Counted from the first letter of the stretch, positions 27,754 through 34,022 are shown. The stretch is DNA of 64,000 nt from an uncultured Pelagibacteraceae bacterium (GCA_902605995.1 CACLEQ010000001.1:5751-69750), one strand, 5' to 3'. The notes: generated from the letters alone by a model not told the origin. Program-made: numbers and translations.

Positions 27754-28305
27754 ATGGAAGTTATAAAGCAAAATACACAATCTAAAATCATAAAATATAT
27801 ATTAATTATTTTTTTGAGCTCAATTGCCTTAACAATTTCTGCTAAAATAAAGATACCTTTTTATCCTGTGCCAATGACGATGCAAACTTTTATGGTCTTA
27901 TTTTTGGGGATATTTTTAGGTTATAAAATTGGGTCGCTTGCTGTATGCCTATATTTGTTTGAAGGAATAATTGGATTGCCTGTTTTCTCGAATTCACCTG
28001 AAAGAGGTGTTGGACTAGTTTATTTTACAGGTCCAACCATGGGATACTTGATAGGATTTGTTTCTGCTTGCATCCTAGCTTCTTTTGTTAAAGTTAAGGA
28101 TAACTATTTAATAATTTTTCTAAAATTAATTTTTTCTGTTTCAACAATATATATTCTTGGTATTCTATGGCTAGGAACAATTTTAGGTTGGGATAAACCA
28201 ATATTTGAATTAGGTGTTGCACCCTTTTTACTTGCTGAGATTTTTAAGATTTCGATACTAACTCTTTTAGCTAAAAAAATATTGAATATTAGAAAGTTTA
28301 TTTAG
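27754..28305 (+). CDS. bioY: Biotin transporter BioY
   Basis: PVP.T.QT, YL..G..GLPVF, GPT.GYL.GF. Confidence 0.92.
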   Translation: MEVIKQNTQSKIIKYILIIFLSSIALTISAKIKIPFYPVPMTMQTFMVLFLGIFLGYKIGSLAVCLYLFEGIIGLPVFSNSPERGVGLVYFTGPTMGYLIGFVSACILASFVKVKDNYLIIFLKLIFSVSTIYILGILWLGTILGWDKPIFELGVAPFLLAEIFKISILTLLAKKILNIRKFI

Positions 28306-28861
28306 GAGATCTTTTAGATAAAATTCTTTGAAGTGTTCTTCTATGCATCTTCAGCCTTCTAGCTGTCTCTGATACATTTCTATTACAAAGTTCAAATACT
28401 CTGTGAATATGTTCCCATTTTACTCGGTCTGCAGACATAGGATTTTCTGGTGGAGCAGCTTTTTTTGAGGGATCAGCTAAAAGAGCCTTTTCAACATCTT
28501 CAGCATCAGCTGGCTTCGCAAGATAATCAATAGCCCCCTCTTTTATAGCCGCAACTGCTGTTGGAATATTTCCATAACCTGTAAGCATAATTATTCTGCT
28601 TGAGGAATTGGAGTTTTGAATTTCTTTTACCACCTCTAAGCCATTTCCATCACCTAGTCTTAGATCAACTACTGCAAAACCAGGTTTTTTAGCTTTTACT
28701 GAATCGATACCTTTTTTTACACCCTCAGCTTGAATAACTTCAAACCCTTTCTTTTCCATAGCTCTTGCTAATCTTTCCCTAAAAGGGTTATCGTCATCGA
28801 CAATTAACAGCGATTTATTGTCGAAATCTGCCAAATTTTGAAGTGTTCCCTCGTTTTTCAT
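28298..28861 (-). CDS. regA: RegA/PrrA/ActR redox response regulator
   Basis: LLIVDDD..F..RLARAME, LTGYGNI.TAV.A, PMSADRV.WEHI.RV.E.C.RNVSETARRL.MHRRTLQRIL; ATG at 28861 preferred. Confidence 0.95.
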   Translation of the reverse strand: MKNEGTLQNLADFDNKSLLIVDDDNPFRERLARAMEKKGFEVIQAEGVKKGIDSVKAKKPGFAVVDLRLGDGNGLEVVKEIQNSNSSSRIIMLTGYGNIPTAVAAIKEGAIDYLAKPADAEDVEKALLADPSKKAAPPENPMSADRVKWEHIHRVFELCNRNVSETARRLKMHRRTLQRILSKRSPK

Positions 28862-29005
28862 ATGCTTAATATGGATATTTTTTTCCACAATTCAATAGGC
28901 GATTATTTGCTTTACATTGAATAACTATTGAATTATCGGTGCAAATACTAAAGTTTTTTTATAAAAGACTTTTTTTGTTAAATTTTTTTTTTGGGAGCAT
29001 TTATA

Positions 29006-30190
29006 ATGCAAAAATTTAAGTCAGTTGAAGAATTAGTAAATCAACTGAAACCTACAAGGCCAGTATATTGTATTAGAAAGAAGTCAATTCTTTCTGCATC
29101 AAAATTTTTTCAAGATAAATTTCCAGGAAAAACTTTATTTGCAGTCAAAACAAATCCACATCCAGATATTATAAAGACGCTTATTAAAAGCGGCATTGAT
29201 CAATTTGACGTTGCATCTATAGAGGAAATAAAAATTGTTAGAAAATATAGCTCAATAGCAAAGTGTTCATTTATGCATACAGTAAAAAGCAAAGAAAGTA
29301 TAAGAGAAGCTTATTTTGACTATGGAATTAAAACGTTCGCTTTAGATACAAAAGACGAATTAATTAAAATAATAGAAAGTACTAATAGTGCAAAGGATCT
29401 AGAATTATTTGTAAGAGTAGCTGTCTCTAATGAACATGCTGAAATAGATTTATCAAAAAAATTTGGCGCTTTATCATCTGAGGCAATTGGATTATTAAGA
29501 CTTGCAAAACAGCATTCAAAAAAAATTGGTATTAGTTTTCATGTTGGCTCACAGTGTATGCATCCTATTTCTTATACTAAAGGAATTAATGAAATTGGAA
29601 ATATAATAAAAAAAACTAAAATTATTCCTGATTACATAAATGTAGGTGGGGGATTTCCAACAATTTATCCAGATCTGATACCCCAACCACTTGAAAACTA
29701 TTTTAATGAAATTGTTACAGGTTTAGAAAATTTAAATTTAAAAAAAATGCCTAAAATTATATGTGAGCCAGGTAGAGCTTTAGTTGCTGAAAGTGGATCT
29801 ACAATAGTTAGAGTTGATTTGAGAAAAAAACATAAACTTTATATCAACGATGGAACTTACGGTACATTATTTGATGGGGGCACACCAAATATAGTTTTTC
29901 CAACAAAACTCATAAAGAATAATACAAATAAAATTATATCAAAAAAACTAACTGCGTTTGATTTTTATGGCCCAACTTGTGATAGTATGGATTACATGAA
30001 AGGTCCTTTTCTTCTACCAAACAATATAAAAGAAAATGATTATATTGAGCTTGGACAACTAGGGGCTTATGGTTTAACATTCAGAACGCAGTTTAACGGT
30101 TTTTATTCAAATGAAATTTATGAAGTTGAAGATACCCCAATTATGACGCTTTATGACAAAAATATTAATAAAGCTAATTTGGTTGCTTGA
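29006..30190 (+). CDS. Group IV (alanine-racemase fold) PLP-dependent ornithine/lysine/arginine decarboxylase
   Basis: FAVK.NP (PLP Lys), FDVAS, KFG, FHVGSQ, GGGFP, EPGR, GPTCD, GAY; ATG 29006 after GGGAG. Confidence 0.92.
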   Translation: MQKFKSVEELVNQLKPTRPVYCIRKKSILSASKFFQDKFPGKTLFAVKTNPHPDIIKTLIKSGIDQFDVASIEEIKIVRKYSSIAKCSFMHTVKSKESIREAYFDYGIKTFALDTKDELIKIIESTNSAKDLELFVRVAVSNEHAEIDLSKKFGALSSEAIGLLRLAKQHSKKIGISFHVGSQCMHPISYTKGINEIGNIIKKTKIIPDYINVGGGFPTIYPDLIPQPLENYFNEIVTGLENLNLKKMPKIICEPGRALVAESGSTIVRVDLRKKHKLYINDGTYGTLFDGGTPNIVFPTKLIKNNTNKIISKKLTAFDFYGPTCDSMDYMKGPFLLPNNIKENDYIELGQLGAYGLTFRTQFNGFYSNEIYEVEDTPIMTLYDKNINKANLVA

Positions 30191-31230
30191 TGTCAGATAA
30201 AAAAACCTTGGGTCATAATAGTAAAAAAGATTTTCTAAAAGATCCTGTCGAACATATAGACATCACTTCCTTTGACTCAAGAAAAATTATCTCATCAATG
30301 AAAAAAATGTCTTTTGTTTCAAGAGAAATTGCTAATGCATCTAAAATATATAATGAAATGCTCATGGATAAAAATTGCACAATATTTTTGACACTTGCTG
30401 GATCTACTTCTGCTGCGGGGTGTATGCATATTTATCGGGATATGGTTAAATATAACATGGTGGATGCAATTGTTGCAACGGGAGCATCTATTATTGATAT
30501 GGATTTTTTTGAGGCACTTGGATTTAAACACTACCAAGGATCACAATTTCAAAATGACAGCGAATTAAGAGAAAATTACATAGATAGAATTTATGATACT
30601 TACATAGATGAAGAAGAGCTTCAAATATGTGATAAAACTATTGGTGAAATAGCTGATAACTTGAAACCAAAAAATTATACTTCAAGAGAGTTTATTGAAG
30701 AAATCGGTAAATACTTAAAATCAAATGCAAAAAAAAAAGGTTCTTTAATCGAAACAGCATATGACAACAATGTTCCAATATTTTGTCCTGCATTTACCGA
30801 TTCAAGTGCAGGTTTTGGATTGGTAATGCATCAAGAAAGAAATCCTAATAAACATATAACATTAGACTCTATCAGGGAATTTAGAGAATTAACTGAAATA
30901 AAAATTAAGTCTAAAGAATCAGGATTATTTATGATTGGTGGCGGTGTTCCTAAAAACTTTGTTCAGGATACTGTAATTTGTGCAGAGCTTCTGGGTAAAG
31001 ATGCGGGTATGCATAAATATGCTATACAAATAACAGTCGCTGATACAAGAGATGGGGCATGTAGTAGCTCAACACTTAAAGAAGCAAGTTCATGGGGTAA
31101 AGTTGATACAACCAAAGAACAGATGGTTTTTGCAGAGGCGACAAGCGTTTTACCATTAATAGCAAGTGACGCTTACCATACAGGAGAATGGAAAAATAGA
31201 GCTAAGAAAAACTTTTCTAAAATATTTTGA
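30190..31230 (+). CDS. Deoxyhypusine synthase-like protein (polyamine/homospermidine biosynthesis)
   Basis: IDRIYD, P.F.PAF.DSS.G, IGGGVPKNF, DG..S...KEA.SWGK with catalytic Lys; TGATG coupling with the upstream gene. Confidence 0.92.
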   Translation: MSDKKTLGHNSKKDFLKDPVEHIDITSFDSRKIISSMKKMSFVSREIANASKIYNEMLMDKNCTIFLTLAGSTSAAGCMHIYRDMVKYNMVDAIVATGASIIDMDFFEALGFKHYQGSQFQNDSELRENYIDRIYDTYIDEEELQICDKTIGEIADNLKPKNYTSREFIEEIGKYLKSNAKKKGSLIETAYDNNVPIFCPAFTDSSAGFGLVMHQERNPNKHITLDSIREFRELTEIKIKSKESGLFMIGGGVPKNFVQDTVICAELLGKDAGMHKYAIQITVADTRDGACSSSTLKEASSWGKVDTTKEQMVFAEATSVLPLIASDAYHTGEWKNRAKKNFSKIF

Positions 31231-31233
31231 TTA

Positions 31234-32115
31234 ATGATCAAAAAAGTCAAAATTGGAATTATACAAAGTAAGATTTCAGTAAATTTACAAAAAAATATTC
31301 AATCAATTATTAGAAATATTAGAAAAGCAGCGTCAAAAAAAGCTAAAATTATTTGTGTGCCAGAGCTATTTTTATCAAATTATTTTTGCCAAACAGAAAA
31401 TCACTCAAATTTTAAATTAGCTGAAAAAATACCAGGAAAAACTTCAAAAATATTTTGCGACTTAGCAAAAGAATTAAAAATAGTATTGATGATTTCTTTG
31501 TTTGAAAAAAAAACACAAGGCTTTTACCACAACACAAGTTTGGTAATTAGCGAAAAAGGTAAAATTCTATCCAAATATAGAAAAATGCATATTCCAGATG
31601 ATCCAGGTTATTATGAAAAATTTTATTTTACTCCTGGAGATTTAGGTTTTAAATCAGTCAAAACAAAATTTGGAAATATTGGACCTCTAATATGTTGGGA
31701 TCAATGGTTTCCTGAAGCGGCAAGATTAACCGCACTTAAAGGAGCGCAAATAATTTTTTACCCAACTGCTATTGGTTGGCATCCTAAAGAAAAAAAAAGT
31801 TTTGGGAAATCTCAATTAGAATCTTGGATTACAATGCAAAAGTCTCATGCTATTGCAAATGGAATTTATGTTGTAGCAGTTAATAGAGTAGGAACTGAGA
31901 AAAAAGGAGGTAGGAAAATACAATTTTGGGGAAACTCTATGATTATTAACCCTAGTGGACAGATAATTGGAAAACTAAGTAATAACAAGGAAGAAATATT
32001 AATTAGAGAAATCGATTACAAAAAAATTGATAAAACGAGAGAACATTGGCCTTTTTTACGTGACAGAAGAATTGATTTTTATAAAGGCATATTAAAAAAT
32101 CCCTCAGATGAGTAA
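31234..32115 (+). CDS. aguB: N-carbamoylputrescine amidohydrolase (nitrilase family)
   Basis: PELF..YFCQ, YRKMHIPDDPGYYEKFYF.PGD.GF, ICWDQWFPE.AR, YPTAIG, RDRR. Confidence 0.92.
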   Translation: MIKKVKIGIIQSKISVNLQKNIQSIIRNIRKAASKKAKIICVPELFLSNYFCQTENHSNFKLAEKIPGKTSKIFCDLAKELKIVLMISLFEKKTQGFYHNTSLVISEKGKILSKYRKMHIPDDPGYYEKFYFTPGDLGFKSVKTKFGNIGPLICWDQWFPEAARLTALKGAQIIFYPTAIGWHPKEKKSFGKSQLESWITMQKSHAIANGIYVVAVNRVGTEKKGGRKIQFWGNSMIINPSGQIIGKLSNNKEEILIREIDYKKIDKTREHWPFLRDRRIDFYKGILKNPSDE

Positions 32116-33160
32116 AAAACTTAATGAGTATAGAATGCCCGCAGAATGGGAAGCCCAAGATTCAACTTGGATTGTTTGGCCGTATAATAAAAACGATTGG
32201 CCTGGCTTATATCAATATATTCCTGATGTGATTTTAGAAATTATATCCAAAATCTCAAAAAACCAGAGAGTTAATTTGATAATAAATGATAGTGCTAAAA
32301 GTATAAAAAAGTTAATCAAAAACAAAAAAATCAGAAATATTAAATTTCATAAAATTAAGACTGATAGGATATGGTTAAGAGACTCTGGGCCAATATTTTT
32401 GATTAATAAAAAAAATAAAAAAAAAATAATATTAAATTTTGGTTTCAGTGGATGGGCTAAATATAATAATTATAAGAATGATAATAAAATTAATGACAAT
32501 ATTAGTAAAATTACCAAATTAAAAAAAATTAATCCAATTATGAAAAAGAATAACAATATTAGAAAAATTATAATGGAAGGTGGGGCTTTCGATATAAATG
32601 GTCATGGGTCAATTTTGCTTACAGAAGAATGTTTGCTAAGTAAGACCCAAGAAAGAAATAAAAACTTCAACAAAAAAGATTACGAGGAATTGTTTTTTAA
32701 ATATCTTAATATTAATAACTTTATATGGCTAAAAAAAGGAATTTTAGGTGACGATACTCATGGACATATTGATGACATTTCAAGATTTGTCTCAAAAAAT
32801 ACAATTATGACTGCTGTTGAAAAAAATAAAAAAGATAAAAACTATAAAAATCTTAACGAAAATTTAAAAATTTTAAAAAAATCTAAAAATTATAAAGGTA
32901 AAAAATTTAAAATTATAAAGGTACCGATGCCTTCGCCAATTTTAATCAAAAATACAAGGGTTCCAGCAAGTTATATGAACTTTTACATTTGTAATAAAAT
33001 GATTTTATTACCAATTTTTAAAGTAAAAGAAGACAAAAAAGCAATCAAAATTTTCAAAAATTATTTTAGATCAAAAAAGATTGAAACAATTGACTGTAGT
33101 AAGTTAATATGGGGCTTCGGTGCGATACATTGTATGACACAGCAAGAACCTAAGATTTAG
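32108..33160 (+). CDS. aguA: Agmatine deiminase (peptidylarginine deiminase-like family)
   Basis: MPAEWE, W.RD.GP, EGG, DDTHGHIDD, ASY.NF, G.GAIHC.TQQ.P. Confidence 0.92.
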   Translation: MSKKLNEYRMPAEWEAQDSTWIVWPYNKNDWPGLYQYIPDVILEIISKISKNQRVNLIINDSAKSIKKLIKNKKIRNIKFHKIKTDRIWLRDSGPIFLINKKNKKKIILNFGFSGWAKYNNYKNDNKINDNISKITKLKKINPIMKKNNNIRKIIMEGGAFDINGHGSILLTEECLLSKTQERNKNFNKKDYEELFFKYLNINNFIWLKKGILGDDTHGHIDDISRFVSKNTIMTAVEKNKKDKNYKNLNENLKILKKSKNYKGKKFKIIKVPMPSPILIKNTRVPASYMNFYICNKMILLPIFKVKEDKKAIKIFKNYFRSKKIETIDCSKLIWGFGAIHCMTQQEPKI

Positions 33161-33708
33161 TAGGCTGGTTTTAATCTAGCTAATAATAGTCTAAAAGGTA
33201 TTAACATTAATAGAGCAACAAAGATTTTAACTGCTAAATCTCCAAGGGATAATGTTACCCAAGGTATTCCAGTTCCATAAAAAGATATAGAGAAGAATAA
33301 GAAAGTATCGATGGTTGAGCCAATTAGAGAAGATGTCAAAGGAGCTATATACCATTTTTTTTGTCGTAATTGATCAAATATTTGAACATCTAAAAGCTGT
33401 GCAATAATAAATGCCGTTCCAGATCCAATTGCTATTCTAATTGAAATTAAATCTGTGAAATTTGTAGAAAATATTAGTGTAAATAAAATTCCTATTGTAA
33501 AGCCTATATAAACAATCTGTCTTGCAATAATCTTTCCGTAAGATCTATTAGCTAAATCAGTAATTAAAAAAGCAATCGGATAACTAAAAGCTCCATAAGT
33601 TAATATTTCCTCTAAACCATAATAATTTATAGGAAATTGGACTAGATAATTAGATGCTAAGACAACAACCCCCATGATGAAAGAGAGTAATAAAAATAAT
33701 TTACTCAT
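33157..33708 (-). CDS. Queuosine precursor transporter (YhhQ/VUT family)
   Basis: SNYLVQ, YP..FL.TD...R.YG, RIA..S..AF...Q..D, SS..GS..DT..FF. Confidence 0.88.
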   Translation of the reverse strand: MSKLFLLLSFIMGVVVLASNYLVQFPINYYGLEEILTYGAFSYPIAFLITDLANRSYGKIIARQIVYIGFTIGILFTLIFSTNFTDLISIRIAIGSGTAFIIAQLLDVQIFDQLRQKKWYIAPLTSSLIGSTIDTFLFFSISFYGTGIPWVTLSLGDLAVKIFVALLMLIPFRLLLARLKPAY

Positions 33709-34022
33709 TAAGCACTTTTAGATTGAACTATTTTTTTTTGAAAAGGTGATTTTATTAATAAATTTTTTCTCAATTTTTTTAATCTTGGTGATAAATTTTT
33801 ATTCTTAACTGTCTTTAAAAACTCATCAAAACTTCCCTTTTTATCTACTGTTCTTACCCCAGAATTACTAACTGTTAATTTTAAACTTCTCTTTAAAATT
33901 TCACTAGTAAATCTAACTTTTTTTAAATTTGGGAGGAATCTTCTTTTTGTCTTATTATTAGCATGACTAACGTTATGACCTTTCATTGGGATTTTTCCGG
34001 TAAGTTCACATTTTTTCGACAT
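33708..34022 (-). CDS. rpmB: 50S ribosomal protein L28
   Basis: [29 protein letters not shown]. Confidence 0.97.

Follow-up and report, generated by a model that had tools for sequence, protein, structure and literature searches.

The question raised by the locus

Why should an apparent ornithine decarboxylase (ODC) stand in one operon with AguA and AguB, which turn guanidino groups into amines and for which an enzyme making putrescine directly has no need? We met this question in a 64,000-nucleotide stretch of DNA from an uncultured Pelagibacteraceae bacterium (GCA_902605995.1, CACLEQ010000001.1:5751-69750), hereafter the window, where positions 29,006 to 33,160 carry genes for a decarboxylase, a protein of the deoxyhypusine synthase (DHS) family that we call SpeY, an AguB-like amidohydrolase and an AguA-like deiminase. 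A sequence-only reading of the window had left two alternatives: either the decarboxylase is an arginine decarboxylase (ADC), SpeY couples agmatine, and AguA and AguB deguanidinate the bis-guanidino product, or two sources of putrescine feed SpeY. The first is the best supported, because orthologues have been shown to carry out all but the last of these steps (PMC9992855; PMC13625781). We consider it highly probable that the operon encodes the SpeY-type, agmatine-dependent route of SAR11 to homospermidine, in the variant that uses an iminohydrolase, which would explain the apparent paradox of an 'ODC' beside AguA and AguB.

A decarboxylase predicted to act on arginine

The first gene (29,006 to 30,190, + strand; PF02784 and PF00278) encodes an ODC-like, pyridoxal phosphate (PLP)-dependent decarboxylase of the alanine racemase (AR) fold, 394 aa in length. 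All group IV features are present: the PLP-binding Lys (K48 in AVKTN), the Gly-rich loop (GGGFP, 214-218), EPGR (254-257) and the catalytic Cys-Asp pair (C325-D326 in PTCDS). The protein aligns over 394 aa with 81% identity, 94% positives and 0 gaps to the open reading frame (ORF) at L077:4817-6001, where L077 denotes the locus of Candidatus (Ca.) Pelagibacter SCGC AAA797-I19; this ORF occupies the same locus between the same flanks. The purified 394-aa 'ODC' of that strain (WP_075506504, with which we equated the L077 ORF by strain and 394-aa length, not by accession) and that of Ca. Fonsibacter ubiquis act on arginine only; neither ornithine nor lysine gave detectable activity (Li et al., PNAS 2023, PMC9992855).

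We judged specificity by the assayed orthologue because the residue at the Asp332-type position of ODC does not discriminate here. That position was considered as a criterion and dropped; the window's protein keeps the Asp of NDG(T/V)YG, in the form NDGTYG. The ADC of chlorovirus PBCV-1 has Glu at this position. Classical SpeA was rejected as an identity (TIGR01273, 28.8 bits against a cut-off of 624; 394 aa against about 630 aa), as was LysA on the scores of curated models. The protein is predicted to be the ODC-derived arginine decarboxylase of Pelagibacterales. The source assembly comprises 780 kb in 48 contigs and is 68.7% complete; throughout it, PF02784 matched solely the operon decarboxylase and lysA, and we found neither another ADC (AR-fold, pyruvoyl or aspartate aminotransferase (AAT)-fold) nor another type of ODC.

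SpeY as a predicted agmatine-coupling enzyme

SpeY (30,190 to 31,230, + strand) scores 574.8 bits against NF002699 (cut-off 500), with residues 13-346 on model positions 1-337 of 338, and 575 bits in the genome-wide profile search; PF01916 matches with E = 9.5e-99. K304, within SWGKV, is matched in the alignment by SWGKI in the Pyrococcus horikoshii DHS, in the role of the catalytic lysine (Lys329 of human DHS). F209 in TDSSAGF falls where archaeal DHS has the Asp of TDGSIGD, a position that by motif register is Asp243 in human DHS and Phe204 in Thermus CdmS (PMC10981699). C291, 13 residues before K304, is in register with human Asp316, the human numbering being by motif register only. In CdmS, Phe204 and Leu286 stand at the positions of Asp243 and Asp316 in spermidine-using DHS (PMC10981699); the window's SpeY likewise has the non-acidic residues of the SpeY class at both.

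Enzymes of this class have been assayed in some breadth. CdmS consumes neither putrescine nor spermidine (Kobayashi et al., Sci Rep 2024, PMC10981699). Formation of N1,N9-bis(guanidino)homospermidine (G44G) has been demonstrated for Thermus, Fonsibacter and five other SpeY proteins (PMC10981699; PMC13625781). Fonsibacter SpeY and the five others accumulate G44G in Escherichia coli lacking speB and yield homospermidine only when a ureohydrolase is present (Li et al., JBC, September 2026, PMC13625781). With Fonsibacter SpeY in E. coli without agmatinase, G44G piles up and no homospermidine appears, though the host makes putrescine (PMC13625781). By analogy with these proteins, we predict that the window's SpeY couples two agmatines to G44G without using putrescine. 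No enzyme of the homospermidine synthase (HSS) or CANSDH type was found in the 68.7% of the genome that is assembled.

The AguB-like and AguA-like proteins

The AguB-like protein (31,234 to 32,115, + strand, 293 aa) matches the CN-hydrolase family PF00795 with 211 bits, its Glu44/Lys117/Cys154 motifs in place, and reaches 301.5 bits against TIGR03381, under the cut-off of 410.25. Among PDB entries it scores highest against 6mg6, a CN-hydrolase without a name (279 bits), ahead of the N-carbamoylputrescine amidohydrolase (NCPAH) of Medicago (225 bits). The AguA-like protein (32,108 to 33,160, + strand, 350 aa) scores 352 bits against PF04371, the Porphyromonas-type deiminase family, 240 bits against TIGR03380 (cut-off 381.8) and 256 bits against NF010070 (cut-off 483). 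Its catalytic Cys, His and Asp are all present, with H218 and H220 in THGHIDD and C342 in IHCMTQQ; Cys342 and HGHIDD align with the agmatine iminohydrolase (AIH) of Arabidopsis thaliana. That both proteins fall below their equivalog cut-offs is consistent with a substrate other than agmatine or N-carbamoylputrescine.

The AguA-like protein is tied to SpeY by the operon itself, and aguA lies about 0.9 kb past speY in more than 20 genomes of the family for which both coordinates are available. In vivo, Fonsibacter or Rhizorhabdus SpeY together with AIH produces bis(carbamoyl)homospermidine (C44C), and the Rhizorhabdus AIH homolog, inactive on agmatine, has been termed a 'diagmatine iminohydrolase' (DIH) (PMC13625781). 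On this analogy, the window's AguA-like protein is predicted to be a diagmatine iminohydrolase that acts on G44G and not on agmatine. The AguB-like protein would then be a C44C amidohydrolase, of the class proposed by Li et al. 2026 as NCHAH. No second AguA was found in the 48 contigs.

We tried a sequence-defined 'DIH clade' as a criterion of membership and dropped it, because the SpeY-linked AguA homologs are too divergent and form no single clade. Among 401 alphaproteobacterial genomes, the three AguA homologs nearest to that of the window (47-49% identical) are in SpeY-positive genomes, and other SpeY-linked homologs are just 25-30% identical, one of them directly adjoining speY.

The closest structure to the AguA-like protein is 1xkn, an uncharacterised 'putative peptidyl-arginine deiminase', at 289 bits; characterised agmatine deiminases reach at most 173 bits. 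Because its score so far exceeds theirs, 1xkn may represent a G44G-type subfamily.

The proposed pathway

In the pathway that we propose, the ODC-like decarboxylase would convert L-arginine to agmatine, as its 81%-identical orthologue does. SpeY, with NAD+ and Lys304, would move the 4-guanidinobutyl group of one agmatine onto the amine of another to give G44G, the reaction demonstrated for Thermus CdmS and for SpeY from six species. The AguA-like enzyme would deiminate both guanidino groups, turning G44G into C44C and 2 NH3, a conversion seen with the Fonsibacter and Rhizorhabdus homologs, and the AguB-like enzyme would hydrolyse both carbamoyl groups of C44C, releasing homospermidine, 2 CO2 and 2 NH3. 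The four proteins would be made from a single message preceded by a conserved hairpin and U-run, which possibly attenuates transcription.

We tie the window to the assayed orthologues because the decarboxylases align at 81% identity without gaps, SpeY exceeds the NF002699 cut-off, and the architecture of the cluster is like that of Fonsibacter. The published clusters run ODC/ADC-SpeY-agmatinase homolog in Pelagibacter and ODC/ADC-SpeY-NCPAH-AIH in Fonsibacter (PMC9992855). The main finding is not novel, since the mechanism was established earlier, in publications of 2023-2026 on close relatives, and the operon adds an example to it, not a concept.

An exchangeable cassette downstream of speY

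Independent support for the role of AguA and AguB comes from the slot that follows speY. We compared 80 syntenic Pelagibacteraceae loci and the window, 81 in all; two loci end before the slot, and 79 could be typed. The slot holds aguB and aguA in 21 loci (the window counted) and a gene for a 291-aa SpeB-like protein in 58, never both together, and the flanks are conserved across the 80 loci and the window. In SCGC AAA797-I19, for example, the slot is occupied by a SpeB-like gene at L077:7047-7922. The sequence-only reading had proposed a survey of co-occurrence, and for SAR11 the outcome was mutual exclusion genome-wide in the 50 genomes checked: all 30 SpeB-type genomes have the cluster-type SpeB, and none of the 20 AguBA-type genomes does.

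On a tree of speY DNA, the cassette type changes at least five times, and well-supported branches force at least four of these changes; with shuffled labels the mean is 18.9. The AguBA loci L043 and L050 are nested among SpeB-type speY sequences, and the neighbours of L043 are nearly identical to it. Because the slot is exclusive and the type has changed recurrently, AguBA and SpeB appear to be interchangeable solutions to one task, and this interchangeability supports, independently of the enzymes' own sequences, the view that AguA and AguB act on the SpeY product.

As the sequence-only reading had stated, neither SpeB nor SpeA lies within the 64-kb window; elsewhere in the genome there is one arginase-family ureohydrolase. 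This agmatinase-family gene (L004:1477-2451, - strand, on contig C3) is the sole PF00491 match in the assembly, scores above the agmatinase thresholds of NF002564 and TIGR01230, and adjoins a gene for an aldehyde dehydrogenase (L004:22-1455, - strand). Compared with the cluster-type SpeB that other SAR11 carry, its identity is about 29%. As a core paralog it recurs in most genomes of the SpeB type and in 14 of the 20 of the AguBA type, and it might act on agmatine, on G44G or on a guanidino acid.

The two cassettes differ in the fate of nitrogen: by the SpeB-like route 4 N per homospermidine are lost as urea, while AguA and AguB together return all 4 N as NH3. The earlier description of the pathway as urea-free, with reusable NH3, was correct as chemistry; its selective side has behind it a weak and phylogenetically non-independent count of urease genes. 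Urease alpha (ureC, about 960 bits, full-length) is present in 7 of 30 SpeB-type and 0 of 20 AguBA-type genomes, and the window's genome is without it. The seven urease-bearing genomes (L030, L033, L035, L036, L037, L042 and L045) all belong to one speY clade, so these counts are not independent evidence for nitrogen economy. Natural populations alternate at this one locus between a module that releases urea and one that releases ammonia, and thereby offer a clean natural experiment on how a streamlined oligotroph economises on nitrogen. A more ambitious combination, in which the cassettes were swapped repeatedly by recombination under selection for nitrogen economy, a previously undescribed leader attenuator responsive to a polyamine- or arginine-related signal governs the whole operon, and the AguB-like protein is the first dedicated C44C amidohydrolase, seems to us doubtful.

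Distribution of SpeY and AguA

To set the locus in its family we used an evenly sampled set of 251 Pelagibacteraceae species genomes, 164 of them high-quality, which includes the unpublished G497 and G598, though none of our claims depends on these two. SpeY scores over the cut-off in 241 of the 251 genomes (159 of the 164). A cluster-linked AguA homolog, 54-80% identical to that of the window, occurs in 99 of 251 genomes and 49 of 164 high-quality ones, about 30-40% of species; the share varies strongly by genus, with counts of 31 of 127 in the window's own genus and 38 of 68, 13 of 13 and 0 of 11 in others. Across the 401 Alphaproteobacteria, SpeY is rare (20 genomes) and AguA homologs are common (115), with an AguA homolog in just 8 of 19 SpeY-positive genomes.

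Because SpeY is present in 241 of 251 Pelagibacteraceae, and SAR11 are among the most abundant bacteria of the ocean, the agmatine-only pathway probably ranks among the major suppliers of homospermidine to seawater. New here are the near-universal presence of SpeY in Pelagibacteraceae, the cassette polymorphism and the covarying leader hairpin; the added value is modest and resides in the polymorphism, the leader and the predicted last enzyme.

Alternative explanations

Several points weigh against the SpeY pathway as we have assigned it. The enzymes of the window are known from sequence alone, and the assays come from orthologues and homologs. The AguB-like step is without experimental precedent, pure C44C having been lacking (PMC13625781). 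SpeY-associated AguA proteins of other Alphaproteobacteria are 25-49% identical, which leaves no DIH clade to which membership could be assigned, and the AguA-like protein is tied to the assayed Fonsibacter AIH by its cluster, in which linked homologs are 54-80% identical, and not by identity to that enzyme. The core agmatinase-family paralog might hydrolyse agmatine or G44G, in which case AguA and AguB would be partly redundant, or a putrescine branch would exist. Finally, in published co-expression experiments any AIH or SpeB homolog, a Fonsibacter SpeB included, can act on G44G to some degree (PMC13625781).

Another possibility is that AguA and AguB are enzymes for terminal guanidino groups more generally, acting on G44G and also on N1-aminopropylagmatine, imported agmatine or both, with the NH3 serving nitrogen scavenging. 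AIH homologs from N1-aminopropylagmatine pathways do turn over G44G (PMC13625781), SAR11 metabolises exogenous polyamines (PMC8437039), cultured Pelagibacter has a functional fusion of S-adenosylmethionine decarboxylase (AdoMetDC) and aminopropyltransferase, and most spermidine synthases aminopropylate agmatine (PMC11107197). We nonetheless think it unlikely: the genes are fixed beside speY and swap only with the SpeB-like gene at that slot, and the sole assayed SpeY-associated homolog is inactive on agmatine. AguA and AguB might still serve its N1-aminopropylagmatine branch, a route to spermidine through the AdoMetDC-aminopropyltransferase fusion of SAR11; AdoMetDC (PF02675) was not found in any of the 48 contigs, where the one PF01564 match is marginal at 24 bits, and the AdoMetDC gene may lie in the absent 31% or so of the genome or be truly absent.

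A classical route would have ADC make agmatine, AguA and AguB convert it to putrescine via N-carbamoylputrescine, and the DHS-like protein condense putrescine to homospermidine. The AguA and AguB families do act in this way in Pseudomonas, and the SAR11 clusters are so drawn in PMC9992855. We regard it as very unlikely here, since putrescine is what these coupling enzymes leave alone: Fonsibacter SpeY without agmatinase gave G44G and no homospermidine despite the putrescine of its host, CdmS left both putrescine and spermidine unconsumed, agmatine is no substrate for the SpeY-associated AguA homolog of Rhizorhabdus, and AguA and AguB of the window are under the canonical equivalog cut-offs. 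That Fonsibacter SpeY and CdmS do not use putrescine, and that the orthologous decarboxylase is inactive on ornithine, also contradicts the second alternative of the sequence-only reading, in which two putrescine sources feed SpeY. A related explanation has a true ODC and AguA/AguB acting on imported agmatine as two independent sources of putrescine for polyamine synthesis. The best PDB matches of the decarboxylase are indeed lysine/ornithine and ornithine decarboxylases, the Asp of NDG(T/V)YG is kept, and SAR11 takes up agmatine (PMC8437039). Yet both the 81%-identical and the Fonsibacter orthologue are devoid of detectable ornithine or lysine activity (PMC9992855), and the assembly yielded no other ADC that could supply SpeY, so that we give this explanation hardly any credence and retain the SpeY pathway.

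Operon layout and leader region

The four + strand ORFs form one operon by our reading of the sequence, and the junctions described by the earlier reading proved exact. The TGA of the decarboxylase gene (30,188 to 30,190) shares its A with the ATG of speY at 30,190 (TGATG), a 3-nt gap separates speY from the ATG of aguB at 31,234, and aguB and aguA overlap by 8 nt; the catalytic motifs that it had called intact are found in all four proteins. As stop and start codons overlap, a single message would serve for the translation of all four genes, with aguB and aguA translationally coupled. We infer co-transcription from these overlaps and from the gene order, which is shared by 21 of the 81 close loci and by 99 of the 251 genomes of the family. 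A Shine-Dalgarno sequence, GGGAG (28,993 to 28,997, + strand), lies 8 nt before the first ATG, and GGAG/GGGG is kept at this place in the leader alignment.

The flanks on both sides are housekeeping genes: upstream and divergent is a gene for a RegA/ActR-type response regulator, and downstream and convergent are genes for a queuosine-precursor transporter and L28, pyrD and lysS. The G+C content of the window is 24-35%. Its 80 closest genomic loci are from marine Pelagibacteraceae throughout, and SpeY homologs at 92% identity are in metagenome-assembled genomes that NCBI names Ca. Pelagibacter.

The divergent intergenic region upstream of the operon is 117 nt long. It contains a -35-like CTTTACA (28,910 to 28,916, + strand), whose conservation across 74 SAR11 loci is at least 90% and which may be a promoter element. 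Downstream of it, a hairpin of AAAGUUUUUU and AAAAGACUUU (28,950-28,972) runs into a U7 tract, the whole element spanning 28,950 to 28,976 on the + strand. From the hairpin towards its 3' side follow U7-8, (G/A)TTAAA, a second T8 and the Shine-Dalgarno sequence; the U-run and the (G/A)TTAAA-T8 vary little or not at all. In the alignment of 36 distinct leaders from SAR11, 92.7% of the cells in the hairpin are paired, against 64.8% in shuffles, and the covariation score is 0.727, against 0.291 when shuffled (0 of 500 as high) and at most 0.435 in slid controls. The sequences vary while pairing is kept, with an AU-rich type and GCAUA/UAUGC, GCACA/UGUGC and UUCAAU/AUUGAA among them, and the hairpin occurs with both cassette types.

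Hairpin and U-run together resemble a terminator; we read them as a candidate transcription attenuator because no + strand gene is transcribed into the leader region, and their conservation suggests that the operon is regulated. A search of the whole window (1-64,000) at Rfam gathering thresholds matched no family, and thus no known riboswitch upstream of the operon. A scan of 28,200-33,800 for promoter and terminator consensus sequences was uninformative at 29% G+C, with 28 promoter-like matches against 32 expected and 4 terminator-like matches against 1.8 expected.

Comparison with known systems

The closest known system is the cluster of Ca. Fonsibacter ubiquis, also of the order Pelagibacterales, in which all four families recur and the ODC-like ADC gene lies directly upstream of speY (PMC9992855; PMC13625781). 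Its ADC acts on Arg only, its SpeY makes G44G, and SpeY with AIH gives C44C. The window differs in being of the marine Pelagibacter type, and the likeness is one of families and gene order. The marine example SCGC AAA797-I19 differs from the window in having a SpeB-like gene in place of aguB and aguA.

Thermus thermophilus CdmS belongs to the same NCBIfam equivalog family as the window's SpeY, which has the non-acidic Phe at the position of CdmS Phe204. Thermus, however, uses a classical SpeA and a urea-releasing ureohydrolase, whereas the window has an ODC-derived ADC and two hydrolytic deguanidination steps that would release NH3 and CO2. In Rhizorhabdus wittichii, DIH is a SpeY-associated AguA homolog, as is the protein of the window, and has been shown to be G44G-specific and inactive on agmatine; the AIH and NCPAH genes lie elsewhere in that genome, while the window has both inside the operon.

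AguA and AguB of Pseudomonas aeruginosa share with the window's proteins their folds, catalytic residues and two-step guanidino chemistry. P. aeruginosa AguA favours agmatine, with a 3-fold higher efficiency than with G44G; the window's proteins, by contrast, are under the equivalog cut-offs, and their predicted substrates, G44G and C44C, are symmetric and would each be processed twice. Chlorovirus PBCV-1 offers a further parallel, with an ODC homolog neofunctionalised to an ADC and with AIH and NCPAH leading towards homospermidine. Its ADC is of independent origin and its HSS is non-homologous and putrescine-dependent, so that AIH and NCPAH of the virus act on agmatine.

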